From Candidatus Nealsonbacteria bacterium CG23_combo_of_CG06-09_8_20_14_all_40_13 (lineage in GTDB: Bacteria; Patescibacteriota; UBA1384; UBA12157_A; GCA-002773005): a DNA stretch of 37,309 bases. Of the stretch, positions 2,680 through 37,274 are shown piece by piece. The DNA is taken from assembly GCA_002771215.1 (NCBI GenBank), contig PCRM01000039.1:1-37309 (forward strand). The letters are read 5' to 3'. Position 1 is the first letter of the stretch, and every line of letters starts with the position of its first letter. The notes below the pieces were generated by a model, which made no database searches, had not been told where the DNA came from, and was given only the letters and a program-made list of their open reading frames with translations. The translations under genes and the position numbers were made by a program.

Positions 2680-2735
2680 AAACTCAAAACTTAAAACGAA
2701 AAACTCAAAACCACAACTTAAAAGTTAAAACTATT
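2680..2735. repeat. 7-nt-periodic A-tract array (AAAACNN)n; 2680-2711 is a 32-nt perfect inverted copy of 35783-35814
   Basis: aaaactc/aaaactt/aaaacga/aaaactc/aaaacca... read directly. The exact reverse-complement match to 35783-35814 was verified base by base. Confidence 0.85.
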
Positions 2736-2813: not shown

Positions 2814-4564
<1,751 letters not shown>

Positions 4565-4968: not shown

Positions 4969-4997
4969 ATTATAAAACTTAAATTGAAATAAGTCAA
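4969..4997 (-). promoter_or_regulatory. Sigma70-like promoter for groES-groEL
   Basis: Minus strand TTGACT (4997-4992), a 17-nt spacer, then TATAAT (4974-4969), about 120 nt upstream of the groES ATG. Confidence 0.5.
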
Positions 4998-5002
4998 TAT
5001 TT

Positions 5003-5968
5003 TTAGGCCAATGTTTTCATTTTGGTATTTTTGAGTTCAATATTTTTTGTCTTTGAGAGCCATCGCCGCAAAATTTCCTGCCGCTGGCTGAAGTGGTGCA
5101 GTTCAACCATTTTGTCATCTGCCCGGATGTTAGCGCCGGGTCGGCGTGCCTCCGGCAAGGAATAGATGCGCCAAATTTGCAGTTTGCCCGAAATGACATT
5201 AAAAATTGTGCCCCAGATGCCTCCTAACAACCATTCAAACAAATTGCGCCAGTCGCGCAAAATTTTGGAGTCGGCCACCAAATCTGCAATTAAATTGCTT
5301 CTTAATTTTAACTTGAAATTGGGGATATTGTCTGCCACCCAAGCGTTCGCCTGCCAGAATTTGAAAAAATTGGAAAAACTGTAAAGCGGCCGGGCCCAAG
5401 CAATCCAATATGGCGTTAAAATATCCAAACCAATCAGTTTTGTTTTTTGGATATTCAAGCCGTTTTCCACCAGATAGTAGCCCAGACAAATTTTATCACA
5501 CTTTTTATGCTTGCTTTTGCGCAAACCCAGCACAAAAATTGTGGCAATAACCAACAGCCGGCAAAGCCAAAGCCGGTTTTTGGCGCTGACAATTAACAGG
5601 TCAATGTCGCTTGACGGTTTGGCATTATCCAACGCCAAAGATTGGATGACAAAAATGCCGCGCAAAAATGGCACCCACTGCAAATCTTTGACCGCCCGTT
5701 TGGCAATTTGCAATTTTTTACTGGAAATTTGGCGGCGGCGCAGATGCAAAGGAATAATTTTTTTTCTTCTTTTAAAGGCAAAAAAACCATTTTGCTCGAC
5801 GATTATTTCTTCATTAAGCAAGAGCCTTACAGCTTGTTTAATTTCGTCGTTACGGGCGGTTGCGCGCCAAAGATAAATCTCCAGCTCCTCCAAGGTCAGC
5901 GGTCTGTCAAAAAGGTCAAAGAAAGCAAGGGTGGACAGGATTGATTGACAAATTTCTTGCTTAATCAT
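5003..5968 (-). CDS. Hypothetical protein with a possible Pol-beta-type nucleotidyltransferase motif
   Basis: 321-aa ORF with a clean ATG. Only a weak family cue (QSLALDNAKPSSDIDLLIV resembles GS...D.D of the NTase fold). Confidence 0.4.
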   Translation of the reverse strand: MIKQEICQSILSTLAFFDLFDRPLTLEELEIYLWRATARNDEIKQAVRLLLNEEIIVEQNGFFAFKRRKKIIPLHLRRRQISSKKLQIAKRAVKDLQWVPFLRGIFVIQSLALDNAKPSSDIDLLIVSAKNRLWLCRLLVIATIFVLGLRKSKHKKCDKICLGYYLVENGLNIQKTKLIGLDILTPYWIAWARPLYSFSNFFKFWQANAWVADNIPNFKLKLRSNLIADLVADSKILRDWRNLFEWLLGGIWGTIFNVISGKLQIWRIYSLPEARRPGANIRADDKMVELHHFSQRQEILRRWLSKTKNIELKNTKMKTLA

Positions 5969-8104: not shown

Positions 8105-9457
8105 TTATTTACTCATTTTCTTGGAAATTTCAATAATCTCTTTTTGCTTTTTACTAAGTAATGTTTTATCAGTTGATTCAATATTGAGCTTTAAAACTGG
8201 CTCCGTGTTGGAAGAACGAAGGTTAAAACGCCAATTGGGATATTCCACTGTTAAGCCATCTGTGTCGTTTTGTTGACCGTCAATATATTTAGCTTTGAGC
8301 GCAGAGATTATTTTTTCGCCGTTTGGGGAGGCAATTTTAATCTCATCGATCATAAAAAACTTTTTTCTCAAGTCGGCTAAAAGCTTAGACAATTTTTGAT
8401 TTTTATCGGATAAGAGTTTTAAAACCATTAAAAATGGAATAATACCGTTGTCGGAATAGAAATTGTCGCGGAAGAAATAATGGGCAGTCATCTCCGCGGC
8501 CATAAAAGCATTTTGTTTGCGCAATTGCTGTTGCATAAAGATCCGTCCGGATTTAACAAGTGACAATTTAATACCGTATTTTTGAGCCATTTGGACAATT
8601 GGATAAATCGCACGCAGATCAATAATTACTTTAGCGCCAGGTTTCTCTTTGGCAATATATTCCATCAAAATAGCGGTCACAAATGGTGCGGGCACAAATT
8701 CGCCCTTTTCATCAAAAAAGAAACATCGATCGCCATCGCCGTCCCAAGAAACGCCAAAATCAGCTTGATGAGTTTTAATAATGGCAATTGTATCGGCTCT
8801 TCTTTGGGGCAAAAGCGGATTGGGTTCACCTTTTCTAAGTTTTGGATCTGGCTTTTTATCAATCCAAATCATTTGAAGTGGTAAATCTTTAACAACCTGC
8901 TCAATGACCGGCCCCATCGCGCCATTTAAGGTGTTAAAAACCACTTTAAAAGGTTTAATTTTTGCCAACTTAACAAAAGAAAGAACAAATTTTTTATAGT
9001 CGGCAAAAATATCTAAACTTGTCAATTTACCTTTTTTATAAACTTTGCGAAATTTGCCTTTTTGGATAATGGCTTTAACATCTAACAGCCCTGAATTGCC
9101 GGTGACTGGAATAGCTTGCTTTCTAACAAATTTGAAGCCGCCGTACTCTGGTGCGTTGTGCGAGGCAGAAACAGCGATGCCGCCATCAAAACCGAAATGG
9201 CCAACCGCAAAAAAGAGCATATCTGTGGTAATTTGGCCAATTTGACAGACATCAACGCCCTGTTCAAGTAAACCTCGAATAAGTTCTTTTTCCATTGTGG
9301 CTGACTGGGCACGGACATCGCGGCCGACAATTACTTTTTTGGGTTTCAAAAAATCAGCATAGGCCCGACCTAAAAGATAAGCGACCTTTTCATTTACCTG
9401 TGTCGGATAAACCCCGCGAATATCATAAGCCTTAAAAATTGAATTAATAATTTTCAT
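8105..9457 (-). CDS. Phosphomannomutase/phosphoglucomutase family protein
   Basis: Phosphoserine loop VSASHNAPEYGGFK and metal loop GVSWDGDGDR; 450 aa; overlaps the upstream guanylyltransferase gene by 4 nt. Confidence 0.85.
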   Translation of the reverse strand: MKIINSIFKAYDIRGVYPTQVNEKVAYLLGRAYADFLKPKKVIVGRDVRAQSATMEKELIRGLLEQGVDVCQIGQITTDMLFFAVGHFGFDGGIAVSASHNAPEYGGFKFVRKQAIPVTGNSGLLDVKAIIQKGKFRKVYKKGKLTSLDIFADYKKFVLSFVKLAKIKPFKVVFNTLNGAMGPVIEQVVKDLPLQMIWIDKKPDPKLRKGEPNPLLPQRRADTIAIIKTHQADFGVSWDGDGDRCFFFDEKGEFVPAPFVTAILMEYIAKEKPGAKVIIDLRAIYPIVQMAQKYGIKLSLVKSGRIFMQQQLRKQNAFMAAEMTAHYFFRDNFYSDNGIIPFLMVLKLLSDKNQKLSKLLADLRKKFFMIDEIKIASPNGEKIISALKAKYIDGQQNDTDGLTVEYPNWRFNLRSSNTEPVLKLNIESTDKTLLSKKQKEIIEISKKMSK

Positions 9458-10593
9458 AGATAAAGATATTTCCCTTGTTCTTTAATTTTATCCAATAATT
9501 GTTTGAGTTCTTGAGCTTTATCTTTGGCGGCAACCAGCGTCACATCAGGCGAATCAACAATAATAACATCTTTCAGCCCTAAAGTCGCCACTAATTTATC
9601 ATGAGCATAAATTAAACAATTTTGGCTGCCATAGTCAACATGATGGCCTTTGATAATCATGCCGGATTTAAATGTTTCCGATAAAATATCATGCACCGAA
9701 GCCCAGTTGCCAACATCCGACCACTCCAAATCCGACGGAATAACAAAAACATTTTTGACAAAACCTTTTTTTTGGATAATAGCGATTTCGAATTGCTCGG
9801 ATTCAAAACGGGCAAAAAGCTCGGCGATTTTTTTGTTTTGAGGCTCTTTTTGAGTTAGTTCCTGTTTTATTTTATCCAATAGCTGCTTCATGCGGGGTTG
9901 GTATTTGCCAAACCAAGCCAGACAATCAGAAGCGCGAAAACAGTAATAACACGCGTTCCAAAGATATCTCCATGATTTAATATATTGCTGAGCAGTTGGT
10001 AAATCTGGTTTTTCCACAAAAGTATCAACTTGAAAAAGTTGGTGGCCATCGCTTTCTTTTAATTGTTTGCCCATTTTAATATAGCCCAAACCAGTTTCGG
10101 GCCGGCGAGGATTGATACCAATAGTTATTAAATGATTAGGATTTAAACTTGTGGCCTTGAAAGCAGCTTTGAGGGCTGCAGCAAATTCCTCGGGATTTTG
10201 GATAACATGGTCGGAAGCGATAGTAGTAATAATTGCCTTGGGATTGCGCATTAATATTTTGGTAGCGACAAAACCAATAGCTGGGGCAGTATTTTTTGAA
10301 GTTGGCTCAATAATAAATTGGGATTCTGGCAGTTCTGCCAACTGCTTTATAACTTCATCTTTATAAACCGCAGCGGTAGCCACAAAAATTTGACTCGGGT
10401 TTAATACCCGCTTAAGACGCAGGTAAGTCTCCTGCAAAAGAGTCTTCTCGCCAGTTAAAGCGTGAAATTGTTTTGGTCGGCTAATTCGGCTCATTGGCCA
10501 CAATCGTTTGCCCGAACCGCCAGCCATTAAAACGGCATAGTAATTACTGTTAATTATATTGTGAGATTTGGAAATTTGAGTTTTTTGCTCCAT
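9454..10593 (-). CDS. Mannose-1-phosphate guanylyltransferase (NTP-transferase domain, no C-terminal isomerase domain evident)
   Basis: N-terminal AVLMAGGSGKRLWPMSR...PKQF motif and ManC-like colinearity; 379 aa. Confidence 0.75.
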   Translation of the reverse strand: MEQKTQISKSHNIINSNYYAVLMAGGSGKRLWPMSRISRPKQFHALTGEKTLLQETYLRLKRVLNPSQIFVATAAVYKDEVIKQLAELPESQFIIEPTSKNTAPAIGFVATKILMRNPKAIITTIASDHVIQNPEEFAAALKAAFKATSLNPNHLITIGINPRRPETGLGYIKMGKQLKESDGHQLFQVDTFVEKPDLPTAQQYIKSWRYLWNACYYCFRASDCLAWFGKYQPRMKQLLDKIKQELTQKEPQNKKIAELFARFESEQFEIAIIQKKGFVKNVFVIPSDLEWSDVGNWASVHDILSETFKSGMIIKGHHVDYGSQNCLIYAHDKLVATLGLKDVIIVDSPDVTLVAAKDKAQELKQLLDKIKEQGKYLYL

Positions 10594-10605
10594 TATTATC
10601 CTTAA

Positions 10606-10760
10606 ATTAAAATTAGTATTTTTATTATAGCGCCTATCGGACGATATATTAAATTATTAAATTTATTATAGCGCCGAATACTGCGCTTTATTAAATTACT
10701 AAATTTATTATAGCGTTGAATACTGCGCTTTATTAAATTATTAAATTTATTATAGCAAAG
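10606..10760. repeat. 42-bp tandem repeat: two full units, a truncated third and a degenerate leading copy
   Basis: Units at 10648-10689 and 10690-10731 differ at 3 positions. 10732-10757 is truncated and 10606-10647 is degenerate. Each unit contains ttattatag and the small palindrome AGCGC-n8-GCGCT. Confidence 0.85.
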
Positions 10761-10786
10761 ATTATTGAAAAGGTGAAGGGGTAAGT

Positions 10787-12697
10787 TTAGTTTGTTGGCG
10801 CTGGTTGTTCAACTGGGGCCGGTTGGGCGGGAGCTGGCTGTTGGTCGGCTGGCGGATTTTCTGCCGGCACTGGTTCAGCTACTGGACCAGTGCCCCGTTT
10901 GAATTTTGCCCGCCAAGGCACGTATTTGGAAACAAAAGTTTTTTTATGGAGGATTTGGCCATTTTTGGTGACAGTCCAGTTAAAGGAGGCTGTGGCGCCG
11001 GCGACTGCTCTTTCAACTTGTCGGACTTCACCGGCTGGCAAAGAGGGGTCATCAATATACACTGGCTCGCCGGGTGAACGATAGTCATATATAGATGGGC
11101 CTTGAACTTCCACGTTTCGGCCATCTTTGGTGCCGAAGAACTGAAAAGTCAAGTTTGTTCCCTCAAGTTTAGTGTGGATGAGAATATAATCGGCTGTGTC
11201 ATTTTTAAATTTTAAATCCGGCGCCGGGTCATAAATCGTAGCGTCCATGCCCACCGGTGGCTCATAATATCTGACGCGAAAAGCGTGGGCAGTGCGCTCA
11301 ACAATTTCCAAGCCGGCATAGATAGCCGCTCGAAACATCGTGGTTGAAACTTGGCAAAGCCCGCCGCCTGTTTCAGGGACTAATCTGTCTTCTTTAATAA
11401 CCAATTCCGGCAAAAATCCTCTGGAGGCGGAAACTTCCCCTAAAATTTTCAAAAAAGAAAAAACTTCCCCTGGGGCAATTAAGACGCCTTCAAATAAATT
11501 GGCCCCCACTGTAATATTGTGAATTCGATTTGAGGGGCTACCTTTAAAAGAGGACGTTCCTTCGCCCATTAATTCTTCAATACCTAAGTTATTGATGCTG
11601 GTAAGGGTGATTTTGGGTTTGAGCACTTTGGTGGGCAAATTAATAGTTGTCTTTTTGGCGCTTCCTGACACTGCTTCAGACAATAAACTTAAGGTCTTAT
11701 CCTTATCTAAAGCCAAACCATCTTGCGAGGGCTGGAAAACGCCAACTTTGCCGTCTGTCACCCGTAATTTGGCGTCTACCGCCTCTAAATGTATGTCTTG
11801 CGCCAAGCTTTCAATATAACCTTTAATTTTGGCCGGGTCCACCCCTATTGTGATTAAAGAGATTGATTTTACAGCTTGCGCCGAAACCGCCTCGTTTTGA
11901 GAGGACTCGATTGCCTTTGACGGCGAAAGTTTAATCCACTTGGCAATATCGGCGGCAGAAACAGTGTAGTTGTGGTCATCAGATTTTAGAATAATGGTTT
12001 TATCAATAAAATTTTGGATTTGCGGCCAGGCGGCCTGGATATCTTTTTTGTAAATTTTAGGTTTGTCCACCGCAACGGTCAAACCAATTTTATTTTGTGG
12101 CAGAAGAGTACCAAAAATTTGGGCAATTTGTTGCTCAACCCCTTCGCGGTCATATTTTTTTCCATCTGCTTCAGAGAGAATTGCCAAACTTTCTGTTTTA
12201 AAAACAATGGATGCATCTTTGGCCGGCATATCAACTTCTTGGCTGATTTTATTTAAAAAATCAGTCAATGTTTTCGCTTGCAAGTTATAAACAGCCGCCA
12301 GCTGATGGTCTAAAAAAATGGATAAAAATTGTTCCTTGATACTCTCTAAAAATGAAGGCCGCCGGCCAATCGCATAGAGCGCATCTGCTGTTTTATCTAA
12401 ATCATAGGTCAGGTTTAAATCTTGAGGATTCAACTGCCAGCTTTTATCATCCAAATTCAAAGTGATAACTTGCGCCGATTCTTTGGCAAAATTATCCTTC
12501 AAAATTTGTTTGGCCTCTTCTTTGGTCAGGCCGGCCAAAGACAAAGGGCCGATAAATGTGTTGGGATAAATTTTGTCGGAATAATAAAGACAAAATATAG
12601 CAAATGCCAAAATGATAAGTCCCACAAAAGCGCCGATTAATATGAGCGAGAATTTAAATTTATTCTTAAGTAATATCGCAACTTTTGCTTTGACCAT
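10787..12697 (-). CDS. VanW family protein with N-terminal membrane anchor and Pro-rich C-terminal tail
   Basis: TM LILIGAFVGLIILAFAIFCLYY, VanW-domain pattern GGGLCQVSTTMFRAA, tail PVAEPVPAENPPADQQPAPAQPAPVEQPAP. Confidence 0.8.
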   Translation of the reverse strand: MVKAKVAILLKNKFKFSLILIGAFVGLIILAFAIFCLYYSDKIYPNTFIGPLSLAGLTKEEAKQILKDNFAKESAQVITLNLDDKSWQLNPQDLNLTYDLDKTADALYAIGRRPSFLESIKEQFLSIFLDHQLAAVYNLQAKTLTDFLNKISQEVDMPAKDASIVFKTESLAILSEADGKKYDREGVEQQIAQIFGTLLPQNKIGLTVAVDKPKIYKKDIQAAWPQIQNFIDKTIILKSDDHNYTVSAADIAKWIKLSPSKAIESSQNEAVSAQAVKSISLITIGVDPAKIKGYIESLAQDIHLEAVDAKLRVTDGKVGVFQPSQDGLALDKDKTLSLLSEAVSGSAKKTTINLPTKVLKPKITLTSINNLGIEELMGEGTSSFKGSPSNRIHNITVGANLFEGVLIAPGEVFSFLKILGEVSASRGFLPELVIKEDRLVPETGGGLCQVSTTMFRAAIYAGLEIVERTAHAFRVRYYEPPVGMDATIYDPAPDLKFKNDTADYILIHTKLEGTNLTFQFFGTKDGRNVEVQGPSIYDYRSPGEPVYIDDPSLPAGEVRQVERAVAGATASFNWTVTKNGQILHKKTFVSKYVPWRAKFKRGTGPVAEPVPAENPPADQQPAPAQPAPVEQPAPTN

Positions 12698-12934: not shown

Positions 12935-14923
12935 TTAGATTATAAATTGAACAATTAAAAGCGCAATGATGTTTAAAATTTTAATCATTGGGTTGATGGC
13001 CGGGCCGGCCGTGTCTTTGTAGGGGTCACCAACCGTGTCGCCGGTCACGGCGGCTTGGTGGGTAAAGGAGCCCTTGCCGCCCAATTTGCCCTCCTCAATG
13101 TATTTTTTGGCGTTGTCCCAGGCGGCGCCGCCGGAAGTCATAGAAATGGCGACAAAAATGCCGGTGATAATGGAGCCGACCAAAAGGCCACCCAGCGCTT
13201 CGGGACCAAGTAGCCAGCCAACTAAAATCGGCGAGAGTACCGGCAGCAGCGCCGGCAAAATCATTTCTTTCTGTGCCGCCGCCGTCACGATAGCTACACA
13301 ACGGCTGTAATCAGGTTTGGCCGTGCCTTCCATAATGCCTTTGAGTTCTTTAAACTGGCGGCGCACTTCCACCACCACCGCGCCGGCCGCTTTGCCGACA
13401 GCCGACATCGCTTTGGAGCCAAAATAGTAGGGCAAAAGACCGCCGATAAATAAGCCAACCAAAACATAAGGGTCGTTCAATTGAAAATTGAAAATTGAAA
13501 ATTGAAAATTCTTTAATTCTTCTGTGTAGACGGAAAAAAGCACCAAGGCGGCCAGACCAGCTGAACCAATCGCGTAGCCCTTGGTCGTGGCTTTAGTAGT
13601 GTTGCCAACGGCGTCTAACAGATCCAAATTACTGCGCACTTGAGCGGGTAAATTAGCCATTTCACAAATGCCGGCGGCGTTGTCGGCAACCGGCCCGTAA
13701 GCATCAATAGCGATAATAATGCCCATCACCGAAAGCATGGCAAAAGCGGCCATTGCCACCCCAAAAATGCCGGCTAAAAGATAGGAAAAAATTACGCCGG
13801 CGCAAATGATTAAAACGGGCCCAGCCGTTGAAGACATAGAGACAGCCAATCCGGTAATAATGTTAGTGCCATGGCCGGTTTGTGAGGCCTGGGCGATAGA
13901 CAAAACCGGTCGGTATTTTTTAGAAGTGAAATAGTCGGTAATTAAAACCAAAAGCCAAGTCACGGCCAAACCGATTAAAGCGGCATAAAATAAATTCGAG
14001 TTTGGTGAGATATCTTTATTTTTTAATATCCACCAAAAGCCAGCAGCCGACAAAATTGCCGAGACAATTAAACCCTTGTAAAATCCAAACATAATATTTT
14101 TGGCGCCTTGAGGAATACTAATAAACCATGAGCCGACAAGGCAAGCTAAAATAGCTATGGCGCCCAAACCAAGCGGCAAAGCAATCATCAGTTGTGTTTT
14201 GAAAATAATTTCTGCCAAAAGCATGGCGGCCACGGTGGTCACCACATAAGTTTCAAATAAATCGGCGGCCATGCCGGCGCAATCACCCACGTTGTCACCC
14301 ACGTTGTCGGCAATCACCGCCGGGTTGCGCGGGTCGTCTTCGGGAATGCCCGCTTCAACTTTGCCAACTAAATCCGCGCCGACATCGGCGGCTTTGGTAA
14401 AAATGCCGCCGCCCAATCGGGCAAAAATGGAAATGAGCGAACCGCCGAAACCCAAGCCAACCAAGGCGTATAGGTTGTGGGTCCATTGATAAAACATTGT
14501 GACAGCCAGCAGTGCCAAGCCGGCCACCAAAAAGCCAGTTACCTGGCCCGATTTGGCGGCAATGAAAAAAGCTTTCTGCTGGCTGCCAACCGCCGCTTGC
14601 GCGCAGCGCACATTAGCTCTGGTGGCGACAGTCATGCCAATTGCGCCGGCTAAAGCCGATAAAAATCCGCCCAGCAAAAATCCCAAAGCAGTGATTAATC
14701 CTAACTTCCACCAAATAATCGCGGCTAAAACTATGGCGATGGCGGCTACAACTTGGTACTGTCTTTTAAGATAAGCCGAAGCGCCTTCCTGAATAGCTTT
14801 GGCTATCTCCTGCATTTTTGCGTTGCCGGCCGGTTGGCGCATAATCCAGAAAATTAGATAAAGACCATAAAGGATGCCAAGAGCCGAAGCACCCAAAGCA
14901 AACCAAAGAAAAGTTTTTTCCAT
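12935..14923 (-). CDS. hppA: Membrane-bound proton-translocating pyrophosphatase (K+-independent signature)
   Basis: [32 protein letters not shown] (Lys at the position that is Ala in K+-dependent enzymes), [18 protein letters not shown]; 662 aa, multi-TM. Confidence 0.95.
13481..13508. repeat. (ATTGAAA)4 heptanucleotide tandem repeat inside the hppA coding sequence
   Basis: attgaaa x4 read directly. Encodes [10 protein letters not shown] in a loop between TM helices. Confidence 0.9.
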
Positions 14924-16199: not shown

Positions 16200-17285
16200 T
16201 TACTTGGTATATTTTTTAATTAAATCTTTAAAAGTATAATAGGCTGGCTTTTTATCGCCGAGCCACCACTGGCCATCCTGATATTTCAACTTAATTAAAC
16301 CTAAGGATTTTTCATCGCTATCGATTTTATGGGATTCATCAGTCAGGCGGAAGACGAAAAGCCCGGAGAAGACACCGCTGTCATAAATGCGCGGGATAAT
16401 GGTTTGTAAATACTGTACCTGCGCGTCTTCGCCATACAAGCTTCCTTTGAAAGCATTAACTTCTGTCAGCCAAAGTTCTTTTTTAAATGATTTTAATTTT
16501 TCCAAAAGATTATATTCTTGTCCATCGTTTTTAACTTTACTCAAATCCAAATTATCTTTCTGATCCCAGTCCCACCCCAGAATCTCAAATTGTAAACCAT
16601 CACGGATGGCCATGTCAAAAAAACCGATGTGCAGCCAATGGCCATTGGCCACCCTTTTGGCGTGAGGGTCGGCCTTTTTAACACCGTCGGAAAAACCTTT
16701 CAGCCAGGCAATCTCCTTTTGATACAAGTCCAAATTATACGATTCCTCTGTCAGACCCGGCCAACTGGGGTTGACGACGTTGCCAGCCGGCTCGTTGCCT
16801 ATTTGATAATAATTGATTTTCCCTTGGTAATGGCTCACTAATGCTACCGCATCATTGTAACCTATTTGGTAATAATTTTCTTTTTGAAAAAGATTTTGGT
16901 CCTGTGCCACAACCATAACTACCTTTAGATTCTTAGCTAAAATTGCATTGACAACTGTGTCCATATATTCATAATCATCAATCTTTATATAATCAGGCCA
17001 ATCTATTCTTACAGCCGTAATACCCAAATTTTTGGCATCTTGTAAAAGCTGTTCCAAAACGCCTGCATCACGCACATTGGTCGGGGTCGTCATAATACCC
17101 ACGCCCCAAATAAATTTGGGCGCTGGCGCATTGTAAGGGTCTTTTTGACTTAATTGCGTTTGACCGTTTTTTTTGCTGAAAAGATTGGCAATTTTGGCAA
17201 AAGTGATTTTTTTGGAAATAATCAGATTAGTAAGAATGCTTAAAACGAGAATTGTAACGACGAACCAAAAAATTTTTCTGTTCAC
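16200..17285 (-). CDS. Membrane-anchored glycoside hydrolase, clan GH-A (GH5-like) TIM barrel
   Basis: N-terminal TM. YQIGNEPAG (NEP acid/base) and LWLTEVN (nucleophile Glu) are spaced as in GH5-type enzymes. GTG start preceded by AAGGAGG. Confidence 0.55.
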   Translation of the reverse strand: MNRKIFWFVVTILVLSILTNLIISKKITFAKIANLFSKKNGQTQLSQKDPYNAPAPKFIWGVGIMTTPTNVRDAGVLEQLLQDAKNLGITAVRIDWPDYIKIDDYEYMDTVVNAILAKNLKVVMVVAQDQNLFQKENYYQIGYNDAVALVSHYQGKINYYQIGNEPAGNVVNPSWPGLTEESYNLDLYQKEIAWLKGFSDGVKKADPHAKRVANGHWLHIGFFDMAIRDGLQFEILGWDWDQKDNLDLSKVKNDGQEYNLLEKLKSFKKELWLTEVNAFKGSLYGEDAQVQYLQTIIPRIYDSGVFSGLFVFRLTDESHKIDSDEKSLGLIKLKYQDGQWWLGDKKPAYYTFKDLIKKYTK

Positions 17286-17299
17286 CTATCCTCCTTTTC

Positions 17300-17415
17300 G
17301 TTACCCCGACCCCCACTAAGAGGGCTTCTCACCGAGCCAGAGGCTCTCTGAGCCGGTGGCCGCCCTCTTAGCTCCCCGACGTAACGTCGGGGAGGATCCC
17401 CTCGGACGGGGTAAC
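17300..17415. repeat. G+C-rich, highly structured intergenic element with GTTACCCCG / CGGGGTAAC termini
   Basis: Terminal inverted repeats at 17300-17308 and 17407-17415. Internal 10-bp stems CTAAGAGGGC/GCCCTCTTAG (17316-17325 / 17362-17371) and CTCCCCGACG-taa-CGTCGGGGAG (17372-17394). Confidence 0.6.
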
Positions 17416-18626
17416 TAATTATTTATTATTTTTTCTGAATTATCAAATGCCATAGCGATAAAAAACAGCGCCCAAAACAATACCGAAAGGTCATTTTTAA
17501 AATAAGGGGTGTCCACTAAACCATAAGCTAAAATAGCCACCATAGCACAGATAGCCGGCCAAAGAAAAACTTCTTTGCGGCTTTGAAAAAATAAATAGAG
17601 CAGCCAAAGGAAAGCAGCCAGGCCCAGCAGACCCAAATTGAGATAAAGCGCCAAATACAAATTATGCGGGCTGTAAGCTTTATCAATAATATAGAGTTGG
17701 TAGCCGGGCTTGTCTTGGAAATTGGCAATAAAATAATTTTGAAAATTGCCAAGGCCAATGCCAAAAATTGGGTGACTTTTGATTATTTGCCAAGACGATT
17801 GCCAAATTTCCCAACGGGTGTTATTGGAAGAGGCGACGCGGCCAGAATGGGCGGAAAAATCTGGCTTAGCTACCTGCCAGAGAAAAAATAAGGCCAAAAC
17901 AACAACTATTGCCGCCGCAATTTTTACCAATTTTGCACTTTGGGTAAATTTACGTTGTAAAAGATAAAAAATTATCGCCAAAAGTCCGGCCAAAACGGCT
18001 AGGATTCCTCCCCGGCTGCCGGAGAAATAGATGGCACCAATCATAATAATTGCACCGCTAAAATAAAACCATTTTTTCCAGCCGGCCGCCGGCATAGCAA
18101 TTCCCAAAGCCAAGACGGCCAGCGGTGCAAGATACAAAGCCAAAAAATTTGGCGAGGCATTTTCTTTGGGAAAAAGACCATAAATGCCCAAAACTCGGCC
18201 GTCCAAAGCGACTTGCCCTGAAATTTTTTGCCCAATTGTGTGCAAACCAACCAATAATCCTGCCGCAATTAGCCCCGTGTACAAGAGATTCAGTTTCGCT
18301 TTAAAATCTCCTCTTTGAAGTCGGTCAAACAAAACCAGCCCAAATAAAATCGGCAGAACTATCCAGCTTTTCAACTGCCCTAAAGCCACTCTTTTCTCTG
18401 GTGAAACCAAAATTCCTATTATTGCCGCAACTGTAAAAATAACTATCGGCAAGAGAATTTTTCCCGGCGGGATTTTGGCGTTTCTCATATAAATTGAACG
18501 GCCTAGCCACCAGAGAAATACAATAATAATTAAGATATCCAACAAGTTAATTGGCAGAAAACCAAGATTAAATCTGATTTGATATACGGGTAATAAAAAC
18601 AAAATAAAAGACAAAAAATATGTCAT
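17415..18626 (-). CDS. O-antigen ligase/polymerase-like (Wzy_C family) membrane protein
   Basis: 403 aa with about 10-12 TM helices and a central loop containing GSRGG, as in Wzy_C/WaaL-type proteins. Lies in the glycan locus. Confidence 0.7.
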   Translation of the reverse strand: MTYFLSFILFLLPVYQIRFNLGFLPINLLDILIIIVFLWWLGRSIYMRNAKIPPGKILLPIVIFTVAAIIGILVSPEKRVALGQLKSWIVLPILFGLVLFDRLQRGDFKAKLNLLYTGLIAAGLLVGLHTIGQKISGQVALDGRVLGIYGLFPKENASPNFLALYLAPLAVLALGIAMPAAGWKKWFYFSGAIIMIGAIYFSGSRGGILAVLAGLLAIIFYLLQRKFTQSAKLVKIAAAIVVVLALFFLWQVAKPDFSAHSGRVASSNNTRWEIWQSSWQIIKSHPIFGIGLGNFQNYFIANFQDKPGYQLYIIDKAYSPHNLYLALYLNLGLLGLAAFLWLLYLFFQSRKEVFLWPAICAMVAILAYGLVDTPYFKNDLSVLFWALFFIAMAFDNSEKIINN

Positions 18627-33342: not shown

Positions 33343-34341
33343 CTATTTGTTATAAATCTTTTCCGCTTCGGCTTTTAGTTTTTTCCACCAGGCCGGGTTT
33401 TGGCGATACCAAGCCACGGTTTGGGCAAAAAGTTTTTTAATATCTTTTGAGGGCCGCCAGCCCAACCGTTTTATTTTTTGTGCTGAAAGCCCGTAACGAA
33501 AGTCGTGTTGTGGCCGCGGGTCAGGTACAAACTCAATCCAATCCTTGGGGTCAATTTTCATCGCCTGGCACAAAATTTCGGCGACATCGCGGTTTCTGAT
33601 TTCGGGCTTGTTGTTGGCCGCGATGTTATAAGCTTGCCCAATTTTGCCTTTTTTAATCAAAAGTTCTATCGCTCGGCAACAATCCTCTACATAAAGCCAG
33701 TCGCGCACCTGCAAACCCCTACCCCAAACCGGCATTTTTTTACCCAAAAATACATTAGTGATGTAGCGAGGCAGGGCTTTTTCTGGATGTTGGCGAGGAC
33801 CAAAATTGTTGGTCGGCCGGACAACGATTACCGGTACTCCTTTTTTGGCATACTCACGAGCCAGTTTGTCGGCTTGGGCTTTAGATTTGGGATAATCGGA
33901 TTTTAAATAGCGAAAGCGCCGGTCGGCATCATTTTCTTTAAAAAAGCCATTTTTGATAGAGCCGTAAATTTCATCGGAAGAGATATGAATGAATTTTGAT
34001 AATTTCGTTTTGGTCGCTGCCTCCAAAAGCGTCCTTGTCCCCTTAACGTTGGTTTTGTAAAAAATTTCTGGGTGTTTTTCAGCCCGTGTGTTGTGGCTTT
34101 CAGCGGCAAAATGAACAACGATGTCAATATTCTTCAACAAATCATTCACAAGTTTTCTATTGCAAATATCGCCCTTGACAAATTCAATTTTTTTTAGCAC
34201 TCCCTTTATATTGTCAGTGTCCCCGGCATAAGTCAAAGCATCGAGCACTACAATTTTGTCTTGGGGGTGCTTTTTGACCCAAAAGTGGACGAAGTTGCTC
34301 CCAATGAACCCCGCTCCGCCAGTAATTAGAATCTTTTGCAT
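33343..34341 (-). CDS. rfbB: dTDP-glucose 4,6-dehydratase
   Basis: MQKILITGGAGFIGSNF, catalytic YPKSKAQAD (YxxxK), RmlB colinearity. ATG 34341 is preferred; the 27-codon ORF-track extension is encoded by an A-tract repeat array. Confidence 0.9.
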   Translation of the reverse strand: MQKILITGGAGFIGSNFVHFWVKKHPQDKIVVLDALTYAGDTDNIKGVLKKIEFVKGDICNRKLVNDLLKNIDIVVHFAAESHNTRAEKHPEIFYKTNVKGTRTLLEAATKTKLSKFIHISSDEIYGSIKNGFFKENDADRRFRYLKSDYPKSKAQADKLAREYAKKGVPVIVVRPTNNFGPRQHPEKALPRYITNVFLGKKMPVWGRGLQVRDWLYVEDCCRAIELLIKKGKIGQAYNIAANNKPEIRNRDVAEILCQAMKIDPKDWIEFVPDPRPQHDFRYGLSAQKIKRLGWRPSKDIKKLFAQTVAWYRQNPAWWKKLKAEAEKIYNK

Positions 34342-34412
34342 AGTGATTTTTTTAATTTTTTCAATTTTGCATTTTACATTATCATTTTGAGATTTGCATT
34401 TTGCACTTTGAA
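34342..34412. repeat. 7-nt-periodic T/A-tract array in the rfbC-rfbB spacer
   Basis: tcaattttgcattttacattatcattttgagatttgcattttgcactttgaatt. Shares CAAAATGCAAA (minus-strand sense) with the groES-groEL spacer array. Confidence 0.6.
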
Positions 34413-34982
34413 TTATCGCCATTTATATCCAATCTCCGGGCTATTATAAGGCAAGCGTTCTTCGTCTGGGCTTTCGGCATTATACGGCTCTGTCGTATGA
34501 TAAAAAAGCAAAACCGGCTCTTTTGACAAAACTTGATAGCCGTGGGCGATGCCTTTAGGAATCAGGACTAATTTATAATTATTTTCGCCGGCTAAAATAA
34601 CTTGAGTTTTTTTAAAAGTCAGTGAATTTTTTCTTAAGTCATATAGGACTATTTTTGCTTTACCGGTAGCAACAAACCAGAGGTCATCTTGTTTGTGATG
34701 AAAATGAAAACCTTTGATTGTTCCTTGATAAGCGACCGTAAAAGTAGTTTGACCAAATTTTTGAAGTAGTTTATCGTCTTGACGTAAAACTTCAACGAGA
34801 AAACCAGGCTTTATTTTGGCGGCGAGAATACCCCGCCTCTTGGGGCGAGGATGAAAGCCGCCGAAAGAACTCGCCCGAAGGGATACCCCGTCCCTTGGGA
34901 CGGGGTAGTTCATTTTCGTCTTTCGAACATCGGGTATATCACGATGGATTTTTAATTTTTTGATTTTTACACCTTCAATCAT
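34413..34982 (-). CDS. rfbC: dTDP-4-dehydrorhamnose 3,5-epimerase carrying a 39-codon in-frame insertion
   Basis: Cupin core GFHFHHKQDDLWFV...IPKGIAHGY. Removing residues 21-59 restores IPDVRGFLVEVLR, which matches the usual RmlC DxRG strand. Confidence 0.8.
   Translation of the reverse strand: MIEGVKIKKLKIHRDIPDVRKTKMNYPVPRDGVSLRASSFGGFHPRPKRRGILAAKIKPGFLVEVLRQDDKLLQKFGQTTFTVAYQGTIKGFHFHHKQDDLWFVATGKAKIVLYDLRKNSLTFKKTQVILAGENNYKLVLIPKGIAHGYQVLSKEPVLLFYHTTEPYNAESPDEERLPYNSPEIGYKWR
34806..34922. repeat. 117-nt G+C-rich palindromic element inserted in frame in rfbC
   Basis: Minus strand: TACCCCGTCCC-aa-GGGACGGGGTA (11-bp stem), GGGCGAG...CTCGCCC, GGCGGC...GCCGCC, ending ...GGCGGGGTA. No stop codon in the rfbC frame. 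Confidence 0.75.
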
Positions 34983-35025
34983 TCTACTTCCTACTAAATT
35001 ACGAATTTAACAAAATTACAAATAT

Positions 35026-35406
35026 TCATTTATTCAAGTTAATTATCCGTTTAAATCTTACTCCTTTGCTTGTGAAATTAATGAGTAATCCTAATTTTAA
35101 TTTCATACTTTTTAGATAAGAAAATATTTGTTCTATATCTCTTCTGAAAAAATGGTCACCGACTTTCAATTCAACTGCAATGGCATTATCAATTAGAAAA
35201 TCTAAAATATATGTGTCAAAAACTTTGTTGTTTATTTTCAGCGACACCCGAACTTGACTCTTGAAATTTTTTTGTTTTTGTTTCAAAATTTCCGCTAATG
35301 CTTTTTGATATGTGCTTTCTCTTAATCCGGGCCCGAGAGTGTTAAAAACTTCATAACAACAACCGATTATTTCATAACTTTCCTTTTTGTAAATGATTTT
35401 TGCCAT
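35026..35406 (-). CDS. GxxExxY family protein (PD-(D/E)XK-like)
   Basis: 126 aa; ESYEIIGCCYEVFNTLGPGLRESTYQKAL contains G-L-R-E-S-T-Y, the family's eponymous motif; ...AVELK... Confidence 0.7.
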   Translation of the reverse strand: MAKIIYKKESYEIIGCCYEVFNTLGPGLRESTYQKALAEILKQKQKNFKSQVRVSLKINNKVFDTYILDFLIDNAIAVELKVGDHFFRRDIEQIFSYLKSMKLKLGLLINFTSKGVRFKRIINLNK

Positions 35407-35482: not shown

Positions 35483-36271
35483 TTAGTAAATTCGTAGTCC
35501 CTTCTTCCTTGCCCAATAAACTGCGGTTTTAAATAAACTATCAAAGGTGCCGGCATCCGACCAAAAACCTTCCAGTGTCGCCCAAGCTAATTTGCCGGCT
35601 TTAACGTAGCAATTATTTACATCAGTTATTTCCAGCTCGCCGCGGGCTGATGGTTTACATTTTCGAATAAAATCAAAAACCTTGTTGTCATAGATGTAAA
35701 GCCCAGTGACTGCGAAATTTGATTTTGGCTTTTTGGGCTTTTCCTCGATTTTGACAATTTTATGCGTTTCCGGAGTTATCTTGTTTTGAGTTTTTCGTTT
35801 TAAGTTTTGAGTTTGAAACACCGGCACGCCAAAGCGCTGGGGGTCGGTTACTTCTTTCAAAAAAACCATTGCTCCCTTCCCCGAAGGGGAGCCTTTGGCT
35901 TTAAATTTTTTTACTGGTTTAGAAATATCGGCATCAGTACAATTGTCGCCTAAAATAACGGTGACTGGCCCGCCCTCAGCAAAATCTTCACAAAGTGATA
36001 AGGCCTGAGCAATACCGCCCTCTTTTTCCTGATATGTGTATTCTAAATGTTTAAGCCCTAATTTTTTGCCATTACCCAAAACTCTGATATAGTCCCCTGC
36101 ATAAGGGCCGCCTGTCACAATAATTACATCTTTAATTCCAGCTTTAACGAGGGTTTGAATCGGATAAAATACCATAGGGGAATCAAAAATCGGCAATAGG
36201 TGTTTTGATGTAGCATAGGTAAGAGGATATAGCCTTGTCCCTAAACCACCAGCAAGTACTACTCCCTTCAT
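35483..36271 (-). CDS. rfbA: Glucose-1-phosphate thymidylyltransferase (short form) with in-frame repeat insertion
   Basis: MKGVVLAGGLGTRLYPLT, EEKPKKPKSNFAVTGLYIYD. The segment QTQNLKRKTQNK is encoded by the 32-nt repeat copy at 35783-35814. Confidence 0.85.
   Translation of the reverse strand: MKGVVLAGGLGTRLYPLTYATSKHLLPIFDSPMVFYPIQTLVKAGIKDVIIVTGGPYAGDYIRVLGNGKKLGLKHLEYTYQEKEGGIAQALSLCEDFAEGGPVTVILGDNCTDADISKPVKKFKAKGSPSGKGAMVFLKEVTDPQRFGVPVFQTQNLKRKTQNKITPETHKIVKIEEKPKKPKSNFAVTGLYIYDNKVFDFIRKCKPSARGELEITDVNNCYVKAGKLAWATLEGFWSDAGTFDSLFKTAVYWARKKGLRIY
35783..35814. repeat. 32-nt perfect inverted copy of 2680-2711, inside rfbA
   Basis: gttttgagtttttcgttttaagttttgagttt equals the reverse complement of aaactcaaaacttaaaacgaaaaactcaaaac. 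Confidence 0.9.
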
Positions 36272-37113
36272 TATATTAACTCCTTTCTAATGGCTAAATA
36301 GAAATTGTGTTTCCTATTTAGATAATATTGGGCATTTAGATAAAGCCAATCAAAAATTCTCAAAGCCTGTTTATTGCCTCTATATCGCAAAGCAAAATGA
36401 TTGCTTTTTTTAATATTGCGCGTCAATTTAGTTCGATTTAAATTTAGGTACCTGATTAGGAATTTTTGAATATTTGATAACAAACCCTTAGAACCAACAA
36501 TTTGAAAAAGAAGTGAACGCTTTTTTTTATCCCACAATATACTGCCATCTCCTTCGAATACCCCAAGAATGAAGGATTTAATAATTTGTTCGTCATTATC
36601 TCTTTTTAATATTTCTGGAAAATTCTCCTTCGTAGATTTATTGGTTTTTATACCAATCTCCTCAATCCTTCTAACTAATTTAGCGCTGGTTATCAAAAGG
36701 GCGATTTGAAAATATGTTTTTCTTGTTTTTTTTAGTTGAGTTTTCATCTTAATTAATTTTCCTGTGTAGAATAAAAGCTTTCTAATTTTCTGTAAAACAT
36801 CCTTATCTTTAATTGAAACTTTAATTCCAAATCTGGGCGATTTATCGTTCCCCCTCACAAACCCATCACTAACAAGCCAACCTAAAACCCAAGCATTTTC
36901 ACTATTAATCTGATCGAAATAATTTTCATTGACATGATATTTTCTTTGGCCCAGCTTTCGAGTTTTGTCTTTTGCTTTGAGTCCATATTGTCTCATTCTA
37001 TGTGAAATCACCCATTGAGAAATTTTTAATTCTTTTGCGATTAAATCTTGCGACAGATTTTTAATAAAATATCTGTCAATTATAAAAGTTTTTGAAATTT
37101 GGTATTTTCTCAT
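36271..37113 (-). CDS. LAGLIDADG-family homing-endonuclease-like protein with N-terminal HTH
   Basis: Two LAGLIDADG motifs, LGWLVSDGFV and LGVFEGDGSI, about 100 aa apart. N-terminal IAKELKISQWVISHRMRQYGL is HTH-like. ATG 37113; the stop forms a TAATG overlap with the rfbA start. Confidence 0.75.
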   Translation of the reverse strand: MRKYQISKTFIIDRYFIKNLSQDLIAKELKISQWVISHRMRQYGLKAKDKTRKLGQRKYHVNENYFDQINSENAWVLGWLVSDGFVRGNDKSPRFGIKVSIKDKDVLQKIRKLLFYTGKLIKMKTQLKKTRKTYFQIALLITSAKLVRRIEEIGIKTNKSTKENFPEILKRDNDEQIIKSFILGVFEGDGSILWDKKKRSLLFQIVGSKGLLSNIQKFLIRYLNLNRTKLTRNIKKSNHFALRYRGNKQALRIFDWLYLNAQYYLNRKHNFYLAIRKELI

Positions 37114-37198
37114 CAATGCATCCCAATCAAAATGACGCCTTTCATATTTTCTCCTGTAGATTGAGGATATTTTATAATAGCCAAACTGTCAAATATAA

Positions 37199-37274
37199 TG
37201 GCGCCCTCGGGCCGATTCGAACGGCTAACCTTCAGATCCGCAATCTGACGCTCTATCCATTGAGCTACGAGGGC
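37199..37274 (-). tRNA. tRNA-Arg (anticodon GCG by manual fold), 3' CCA encoded
   Basis: Hand-folded cloverleaf: acceptor GCCCTCG/CGAGGGC, D arm GCTC-AATGGATA-GAGC, anticodon arm TCAGA-TTGCGGA-TCTGA, T arm (A)GCCG-TTCGAAT-CGGC(C), discriminator G, CCA. Confidence 0.8.

Follow-up and report, generated by a model that had tools for sequence, protein, structure and literature searches.

A 99-nt in-frame insertion in an rmlC gene of Candidatus Nealsonbacteria, very probably an ends-only IS200/IS605 derivative

Ends-only derivatives of IS200/IS605 insertion sequences are already known. Here, we describe what is very probably another such derivative (probability, roughly 0.85), a 99-nt element that lies in frame within an rmlC gene of Candidatus Nealsonbacteria bacterium CG23_combo_of_CG06-09_8_20_14_all_40_13 and carries no transposase gene. 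The gene is located on contig PCRM01000039.1, of which the whole analyzed stretch of 37,309 nt is referred to below as the window. For elements of this kind, we use the term PATE (palindrome-associated transposable element) as it is used in PMC7290912; loosely, the element could also be called a MITE (miniature transposable element with inverted repeats). Transposition of IS200/IS605 elements is single stranded and strand specific, with the transposase TnpA recognizing subterminal imperfect palindromes (PMC3597680, PMC3201880). A tetra- or pentanucleotide serves as the target, with insertion on its 3′ side, and a 4-nt guide situated 5′ of each hairpin recognizes the cleavage sites (PMC3597680, PMC3201880); in IS608, the target TTAC is base paired with AAAG, the left guide (PMC3201880). 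The linker measures 15 to 16 nt at the left end versus 8 nt at the right end (PMC3597680), the two sources together giving ranges of ~15 to 19 and ~8 to 10 nt (PMC3597680, PMC3201880), and the donor is resealed after excision with no DNA gained or lost (PMC3201880).

The window element resembles IS608, ISDra2, IS200, and the PATEs in having direct subterminal imperfect palindromes and a long left and short right linker, with neither terminal inverted repeats nor target-site duplications. As in IS200/IS605 elements and PATEs generally, its left flank carries a conserved target tetranucleotide that can pair with a guide on the 5′ side of the hairpin, and as in their ends-only derivatives, it has no coding capacity of its own and shares a right-end module with elements that carry a Y1 HUH tnpA gene. 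At 99 nt, it is very small, compared with ~271 nt for the PATE-like element described in PMC7290912. It also differs from known IS200/IS605 elements in possessing an extra outer stem around the left hairpin and in its target, which is TTAT rather than TTAC or TTGAT. Unlike the known IS200/IS605 elements and PATEs, it is found in Patescibacteria, and a cognate tnpA in the same genome would be hypothetical.

Palindromic repeats lying in frame within genes are documented, as far as the descriptions in PMC10969869 and PMC3733652 extend, for the Rickettsia palindromic elements (RPEs; Ogata et al.), for REPs in many species, and for some MITEs. As described in these two sources, RPEs are in-frame palindromes in unrelated housekeeping genes that add a peptide yet leave the open reading frame (ORF) open, are conserved at the level of structure, and occupy insertion sites that appear to be compatible with the protein fold. 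The likeness to the window element is therefore one of behavior, drawn from descriptions; the sequences are presumably unrelated, and RPEs are portrayed there as ~150 bp long, CGTC tagged, and without a known dedicated transposase. According to the same accounts, nearly half of the RPEs of R. conorii are intragenic, compared with about one in eight distinct copies here. REPs and REPINs (PMC3733652) share with the window element their G+C-rich hairpins, their place in the world of Y1 HUH transposases, and the occurrence of some copies in coding regions, where they add residues or stops. However, the transposases linked to the present element are ordinary IS200-type enzymes, and its unit consists of two different direct ends rather than a GTAG palindrome or an inverted doublet. 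Classical MITEs (Correia/NEMIS, RUP, Nezha, and ERIC) are likewise nonautonomous, multicopy, structured, and sometimes involved in in-frame intragenic fusions (PMC10969869), but they have terminal inverted repeats, target-site duplications, and DDE transposases, whereas the window element has neither such repeats nor such duplications.

A literature search, which was not exhaustive, returned no description of this family or of in-frame palindromic insertion in the candidate phyla radiation (CPR). The present case extends RPE-like in-frame palindromes to Patescibacteria, a second small-genome lineage, and here a transposase family, an insertion mechanism, and a target rule (TTAT via a guide tetranucleotide) are assignable; for RPEs as described in those sources, no such assignment could ever be made. 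For annotation by gene callers and domain scans, the element explains odd G/R/P-rich loops of 20 to 35 residues or false N-terminal extensions. The understanding of transposition itself is unchanged.

Insertion in rmlC and its boundaries

The interrupted gene lies on the minus strand (positions 34413 to 34982) and encodes an rmlC/rfbC-like dTDP-4-dehydrorhamnose 3,5-epimerase family protein of 189 amino acids (aa) with the insert and 156 aa without it. Its sequence, its homologue and fold matches, and its setting in an rml operon all place the product in the RmlC family. The 636 database homologues, many of them from Patescibacteria/CPR, are nearly all 156 to 166 aa long and carry PF00908; solved RmlC proteins in the PDB match residues 58 to 188 (E ~2e-13); and the operon around rmlC is intact, with rmlB at 33343 to 34422 and rmlA at 35483 to 36271. 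Residues ~21 to 59 have no counterpart in the homologues, and the segment is absent from 119 orthologues. As a first-pass annotation of the window had noted, this segment is G+C rich within an AT-rich gene (61.6% G+C versus 35.9% for the remainder of rmlC), contains no stop codon in the rmlC frame, and carries the strong stems named there. The RNA fold of the insert was more stable than 200 of 200 shuffled sequences (z = −3.5), and its DNA fold was matched in stability by 2 of 200 (z = −2.6). The same insertion, identical in sequence, is present in an independent assembly (L001); it is therefore not an assembly artifact.

The limits of the element were set from the length of the host loop in orthologues and from the extent of conservation in the repeat family described below. 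The loop between Asp18 and Gly60 comprises 8 residues in 96 of 120 orthologues, 7 in 11, and a longer stretch in only six (maximum, 19), compared with 41 residues in the window protein, and the orthologue loops of 16 to 19 residues are unrelated in sequence to the insert. Within the family, conservation starts at ATGAAC and stops 4 to 5 nt past ...RAA, where ATAA(A) follows; beyond these points, the flanks are random. Loop length and the limits of family conservation therefore place the element proper at 34815 to 34913, a stretch of 99 nt or 33 codons that corresponds to residues 24 to 56. Deletion of these positions yields ACG AAA|ATA AAG CCT GGT TTT (DVRKTK|IKPGF; junction ACGAAA|ATAAAGCC) and leaves a loop of 8 residues, the modal length among orthologues. 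The homologous site in two intact orthologues (P0014 and P0040) reads AAA ATA AAA CCG GGA TTT, which constitutes a virtual empty site.

These boundaries revise the earlier picture in several respects. The originally proposed insert of 117 nt and 39 codons (34806 to 34922) proves too wide. That proposal also had the insert splitting the conserved DxRG strand. The DxRG region belongs to the N-terminal segment of canonical RmlC and contacts the substrate; the motif is missing from the present subfamily, which follows the pattern D-IPD-xxxxxKP-GFL. The closest 119 orthologues have D, 7 or 8 variable residues, and GFL here; the apparent "DVR|GFL" is coincidental. Nor do the ends consist of inverted TACCCCGYC motifs, as had been supposed: each of the TACCCCG words, at 34829 and 34884, forms the 5′ arm of a subterminal hairpin, and the two hairpins share one orientation on the plus strand. 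Two further delimitations were rejected. An element of 105 nt and 35 codons (ATG...AAG) would leave a loop of 6 residues, which is found in no orthologue, and the AAAAT present on both sides of the insert was dropped as a 5-bp target duplication because other copies show ATGAAC and RAAATAAA conserved without duplication.

A separate difference between the two assemblies concerns the other end of the protein. The rmlC gene of L001 is identical to that of the window over the aligned 5′ part, insert included, and the C-terminal ~30 residues differ sharply (...TEPYNAESPDEERLPYNSPEIGYKWR in the window and ...TETYNSKKPDEERISWDSPEIGFNWEKKEL in L001; compare 34413 to 34500 with L001 ~2010 to 2106). 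This pattern suggests that a recombination breakpoint may lie within the gene.

Element architecture, repeat family, and IS200 transposases

The active ("top") strand of the element would be the plus strand of the window, which corresponds to the tnpA sense strand and is antisense to rmlC; a tnpA of the matching element would be flanked by TTAT|TTTRGCGGC...GGGGTAGTTCAT. All features of the nonautonomous IS200/IS605-type element (34815 to 34913) are given here on the plus strand. Read directly from the sequence, the left-end linker is 16 nt long (TTTGGCGGCGAGAATA, 34815 to 34830), and its last four bases, AATA (34827 to 34830), form the putative left guide GL, which is proposed on the basis of guide/target covariation. 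The left-end subterminal hairpin IPL follows (34831 to 34850; CCCCGCC/GGCGAGG with a 6-nt loop); it folds, is conserved and partly covarying in the family alignment, and has one C.A mismatch on the plus strand that corresponds to a G.U pair on the mRNA strand. An outer stem (34818 to 34862) formed by GGCGGC (34818 to 34823) and GCCGCC (34857 to 34862) encloses IPL; it folds and corresponds to helix 4 of the family alignment, in which 3 pairs are changed on both sides and 95.6% of cells are paired. Between the two ends lies a small central hairpin, CCC-GAA-GGG (34874 to 34882), which is helix 3 of the alignment (98.8% of cells paired).

At the right end, GATA (34882 to 34885) is situated immediately 5′ of the right hairpin and, by analogy with IS608 (PMC3201880), would be the guide GR. 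Its counterpart TATC is invariant in all copies on the printed strand, i.e., the strand on which elements begin with ATGAAC. The right-end subterminal hairpin IPR (34886 to 34905; CCCCGTCCC/GGGACGGGG) folds, has compensatory variants elsewhere, and is lengthened by T-A and A-T pairs to TACCCCGTCCC/GGGACGGGGTA. The 8-nt right-end linker (TAGTTCAT, 34906 to 34913) ends in TCAT, the putative right cleavage site. On the gene strand, this linker reads ATGAACTA and encodes Met24-Asn25, the first residues of the translated element MNYPVPRDGVSLRASSFGGFHPRPKRRGILAAK (residues 24 to 56), which includes the peptide MNYPVPRDGVSLR.

Both hairpins have the same orientation, with GGGGTAT after each on the printed strand. 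The element ends on that strand (ATGAAC... and ...GCCGCCAAA) are not inverted repeats, terminal inverted repeats are absent, and the flanks show no duplication. ATGAAC is (nearly) invariant in 56 aligned copies, and the sequence upstream of it is merely A/T rich. On the opposite side, the positions after ...RAA are A/T/A/A in 60 to 68 of 70 distinct copies and random beyond. In the window, these positions correspond to TTAT at 34811 to 34814 on the plus strand, or ATAA on the rmlC sense strand within codons ATA AAG; TTAT is complementary to the guide AATA and would be the target and left cleavage tetranucleotide CL. Rfam at gathering thresholds detected only a tRNA in the window (37202 to 37274), and a permissive Rfam scan of 34750 to 34990 gave chance-level matches only (E of at least 0.17).

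The first-pass annotation had proposed a search for further copies. No second copy was found in the 37-kb window, but a pattern scan of metagenomes (CGGGGTATCCCN{4,6}GGYRAGTTCTTT) returned 91 stretches, representing about 85 distinct copies, with two copies on several contigs. When 56 copies are aligned, the 25 predicted pairs are formed in 96.6% of cells. Changes on both sides of a pair were observed in 56 cells, compared with 24 ± 4 in column shuffles (0 of 500 reached the observed value), and pairing falls to 41 to 65% when the partner is slid by one to three columns. Stem variants in other copies are compensatory (GTCCC/GGGAC, GCCCC/GGGGC, GGCC/GGCC, and TCTCT/AGAGA), and the encoded residues vary with the stems (PVPRDGV, PAPRGGV, and PSLKRRGI). 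Because the stems compensate while the encoded residues change, selection targets nucleic acid structure rather than the peptide. G.U pairs and C.A mismatches are about equally frequent in the stem counts, which do not tell RNA apart from top-strand DNA as the selected form.

Relative to neighboring genes, the family shows no orientation bias (26 same, 28 opposite, and 26 mixed), whereas such a bias would be expected if insertion followed the direction of replication. In three copies (L057, 9951 to 10060; L070, ~4971 to 5075; and L076, 1745 to 1850), the segment between GGCGGC and GCCGCC is inverted, such that they read GAGAATACCC...GGGATGAAA where the usual copies read TTTCATCCC...GGGTATTCTC, and the left hairpin thus lies on the strand opposite the right one. 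The inversions presumably arose via recombination at the outer stem, and copies of this form should be immobile.

The link to IS200 transposases comes from the right end. One genome per species was scanned for the right-end module (GAACTACCCCN{8,14}CGGGGTATCCC, 21 specified bases), which yielded 43 loci (L006 to L048), many of them at contig ends as with multicopy repeats; 7 contigs in one gammaproteobacterial metagenome-assembled genome (MAG) and 6 in one cyanobacterial MAG carry the module in this way. The hosts span Cyanobacteria, Desulfobacterota, Bacteroidota, Gammaproteobacteria, Calditrichia, Binatia, Anaerolineales, and several CPR lineages, and the module, ATGAAC-TACCCCG...CGGGGTA-TCCC, matches all 21 specified bases across these phyla. 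Such near-identity suggests that the module may belong to a widely exchanged IS200 lineage. The window's own copy had no matching locus among the 43 species-representative loci. At three loci (L011, L023, and L035), the module lies directly past the stop codon of an ORF of 147 to 149 aa on the other strand. These ORFs match Pfam Y1_Tnp (E = 1e-34 to 1e-37) and score 123 to 132 bits against the NCBIfam model transpos_IS200 (cutoff, 55), compared with 22 to 28 bits against the RAYT model (cutoff, 80). Partial tnpA genes with the same end are present at L016 and, from the CPR, at L034/L040 of a Paceibacterota genome. Another hairpin, alike in stem and orientation, lies beyond tnpA at the other end of the unit, and after it come a linker and a terminal word that is conserved. 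The window element is both ends of this tnpA-bearing unit joined without the gene. The Desulfobacterota have their own MITE version of ~95 nt.

The ends also conform to the IS200/IS605 pattern in their spacing and in the relation of guide to target. The linkers of the window element are 16 nt (left) and 8 nt (right), and left linkers of related non-CPR copies are 16 to 18 nt long. Conservation of (T)TTAT is confined to the left flank, the right flank being merely A/T rich. The guide/target pair differs by clade: AATA/TTAT in the CPR type and AATT/TTAA, AGTT/CTAA, or CATT/TGAA elsewhere. Watson-Crick pairing holds at G2:C1 and G4:C4 throughout, in the CPR type as well as in all 14 of the non-CPR copies tabulated, and at G1:C2 in 9 of those 14. 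The pairing of guide with target resembles that of IS608. At the sequence level, then, direct subterminal palindromes, the lack of terminal inverted repeats and target-site duplications, asymmetric linkers, guide/target correspondence, and a right end shared with tnpA units all point to IS200/IS605. Together with the related copies in unrelated contexts and the virtual empty site, these IS200-type ends uphold the original idea that a mobile palindromic element landed in frame.

The steps by which TnpA would have acted here are argued from membership in this family. The element would move as a single-stranded DNA circle, cut and joined by a Y1 HUH TnpA supplied in trans; such mobilization receives indirect support from the about 85 distinct copies and the two-copy contigs. 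It would insert 3′ of a specific tetranucleotide that pairs with the 4-nt guide beside the left hairpin, making no target duplication, and its excision would be seamless. The target in the present case would be TTAT on the plus strand, equivalent to ATAA on the rmlC sense strand, with entry between codons AAA (Lys23) and ATA (Ile). Because the element is a multiple of three long (3n), is stop free in this frame, and entered at a codon boundary, rmlC stays open. The mRNA would most likely keep the insert, and its translation would lengthen a naturally variable loop, which joins two N-terminal beta strands of the RmlC-like cupin, by 33 disordered residues.

Several observations weigh against this reconstruction. 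No tnpA was found in the 37-kb window or in the CPR-type metagenome loci, and a trans-acting transposase in this organism would be hypothetical. No tnpA element with the exact CPR-type left end was recovered; this left end is homologous to, yet clearly diverged from, those linked to tnpA. The G1:C2 pair is non-Watson-Crick in 5 of the 14 non-CPR copies. A near-identical strain with an empty-site allele at the DNA level was not found, L001 having the insert. Finally, a functional cost is possible, the insertion lying in the region that matches the substrate-contacting N-terminal segment of canonical RmlC.

Consequences for RmlC and other host genes

AlphaFold2, run on the insert-bearing RmlC with 120 sequences, gave a mean predicted local distance difference test (pLDDT) score of 87.7. 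Ten-residue blocks from residue 71 onward average 92 to 98, whereas those over residues 21 to 60 average 54, 49, 54, and 70, with no secondary structure predicted between strands 12 to 14 and 61 to 63. The model superposes on RmlC-type cupins with a best target-normalized TM-score of 0.84. Structure prediction with the insert, suggested in the first-pass annotation, thus returned an intact core and a disordered insert. Among the outcomes which that annotation had listed, a tolerated surface loop, here of low confidence on a predicted intact cupin fold, is the best supported, given the variable host loop (7 to 19 residues among orthologues), the intact predicted core, and the open ORFs of other hosts. 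The intact predicted core and the natural variability of the loop make it most likely that the insert is kept in the mRNA and translated as a floppy loop. We lean somewhat toward an enzyme that keeps its activity despite the insert.

Most copies of the family are intergenic, and about ten of the ~85 distinct copies lie in long ORFs. Their hosts, most of which are confirmed by Pfam, are RmlC, RuvC, Fur, PilM, a 2,746-aa protein, a YdjM-like membrane protein, a PMT_2 glycosyltransferase in which a different sense frame is used, an unassigned 457-aa protein in which the copy is antisense, and a group-1 glycosyltransferase whose C-terminal tail is supplied by the element. The ORF-internal copies are 60, 69, 72, 75, 96, 99, 99, 99, and 102 nt long. 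All of these lengths are multiples of three, which bears on the earlier question of whether copies inside genes are always in frame. The target ATAA bars the sense frame xxA TAA, in which the TGA of the element itself would also be read; the two remaining sense frames are both stop free, and both are seen. Altogether, four of the six element frames are open. The open frames were translated and searched as one concatenated peptide (five frames, one of which starts with the element's own TGA), and matches were obtained only in the rmlC frame: the search recovered the element, in the same frame, in RuvC (P0122), in Fur (P0123, a shortened copy), and at the 5′ end of a nitroreductase ORF (P0121), which the gene caller began at the element's own ATG.

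Copies next to genes can also contribute start and stop codons. At L002, an intergenic element (10001 to 10112) carries an ATGA that provides the TGA stop of the upstream ORF and the ATG start of a nitroreductase, and the resulting 36-residue N-terminal extension may be false or real. A similar placement just upstream of a start codon was observed at L033 and L043.

Lengths that are multiples of three were found in 46 of 71 distinct copies, compared with ~24 expected by chance. We do not read this excess as adaptation because a single 102-nt subfamily supplies 27 of the 46 copies. The simplest account of the in-frame copies is survivorship, whereby only insertions that are 3n long, stop free, and located in tolerant loops persist.

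Of the competing explanations, the one that fares best, although we consider it unlikely, is that the insertion inactivated or crippled RmlC, leaving a young pseudogene or hypomorph that has not yet gathered stops. The site of the insert corresponds to the part of the N terminus that touches the substrate in canonical RmlC enzymes, which would fit such damage, as would a loop extended to five times its normal length, and the identity of the insert in two assemblies suggests a recent event. However, the ORF is intact, as is the surrounding rml operon; the predicted core has a pLDDT above 90; the host loop already ranges from 7 to 19 residues in orthologues; and members of the same family occupy open ORFs of RuvC, Fur, and PilM.

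A further proposal is that the element is a reversible switch, in which seamless excision and reinsertion by TnpA would toggle a peptide loop and perhaps enzyme activity in surface polysaccharide and other genes, with the 3n length and open frames of the family as adaptations to life within genes. If true, this would amount to peptide-loop toggling in cell envelope and DNA repair genes of genome-reduced CPR bacteria. IS200/IS605 excision does leave the donor restored, with no DNA added or removed (PMC3201880), only two sense frames, both of them stop free, are compatible with the ATAA target and the TGA within the element, and several hosts are cell envelope genes (rmlC, two glycosyltransferases, and PilM). 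The 3n excess also points in this direction, but it is dominated by the 27 copies of the 102-nt subfamily, which may descend from a founder element. Moreover, most copies are intergenic without orientation bias relative to their neighbors, and no polymorphic empty and filled alleles were observed. We therefore regard a switch as improbable.

Still less probable is a REP/REPIN moved by a domesticated RAYT or a classical MITE with terminal inverted repeats and target-site duplications. In favor of this are the short, G+C-rich, palindromic nature of the repeat, a GTAG word that the right hairpin has at its 3′ edge (34905 to 34908, plus strand), and the documented presence of REPs inside genes (PMC3733652). 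Against this, the associated transposases score far above the cutoff for transpos_IS200 and far below that for RAYT, the units bearing tnpA also exist in multiple copies and interrupt assemblies at contig ends, the hairpins are direct rather than inverted, and both terminal inverted repeats and a target duplication are lacking. Removal of the segment after transcription, as an intron-like or processed RNA, or after translation, as an intein, is scarcely credible. A strongly structured, G+C-rich segment placed exactly in frame in an AT-rich gene might invite this idea, and RNA-level removal had been floated at first, but no Rfam family was found at or near threshold, 99 nt is far below the size of a group I or II intron or an intein, the family is mostly intergenic with many copy lengths that are not multiples of three, and the ends are those of a DNA transposon. 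The idea that this RmlC lineage inherited the 33 to 39 residues as a native loop from its ancestor, without any insertion, can be virtually dismissed: a few orthologues do have loops of 16 to 19 residues here, but these are unrelated in sequence, 119 of 120 relatives lack the segment, and unrelated genes as well as intergenic regions contain the same DNA.

Other features of the rml operon and the window

Two further ORFs in the rml operon look like selfish or mobile-element-related genes. A free-standing ORF of 281 aa with a LAGLIDADG_3 domain (36271 to 37116, minus strand) lies directly upstream of rmlA, and a 126-aa ORF with a PDDEXK_3 domain (PD-(D/E)XK nuclease; 35026 to 35406, minus strand) is wedged between rmlA and rmlC, in L001 as well as in the window. 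The operon also contains one copy of a perfect 32-nt repeat, AAACTCAAAACTTAAAACGAAAAACTCAAAAC, which is found in intergenic DNA at 2680 to 2711 (plus strand) and on the rmlA sense strand at 35783 to 35814 (minus strand), and which is also present in L001. The rmlA copy, which may represent a second repeat-derived in-frame insertion in the operon, codes for a portion of QTQNLKRKTQNKITPETH; this segment exceeds the matching loop of the solved RmlA 3hl3 by ~15 residues.

A second, different G+C-rich palindrome of ~125 nt, with termini GTTACCCCG...CGGGGTAAC, is located at 17290 to 17414 between minus-strand ORFs at 16200 to 17285 and 17415 to 18626. It adopts a three-way fold (−75 kcal/mol; z = −6.0) and is immediately upstream of the downstream gene's ribosome-binding site, AAGGAGG. 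The possibility that it is a copy of the rmlC element was rejected, as the two share only the TACCCCG word and do not align; it had no Rfam match and no relatives among the fetched loci. Between ORFs at 9454 to 10593 and 10787 to 12697, four tandem 42-nt AT-rich units (...AAATTATTAAATTTATTATAGCGCC...) occupy intergenic positions 10610 to 10767. Short A/T-rich repeats of the CATTTTG/CAATTTT type occur at 4510 to 4554, at 13479 to 13508, and at 34350 to 34421, the last at the 5′ end of rmlB. The longest rmlB ORF starts within this repeat and thereby gains 27 N-terminal residues, rich in lysine, ahead of MQKILITGGAGFIG, the likely true start.

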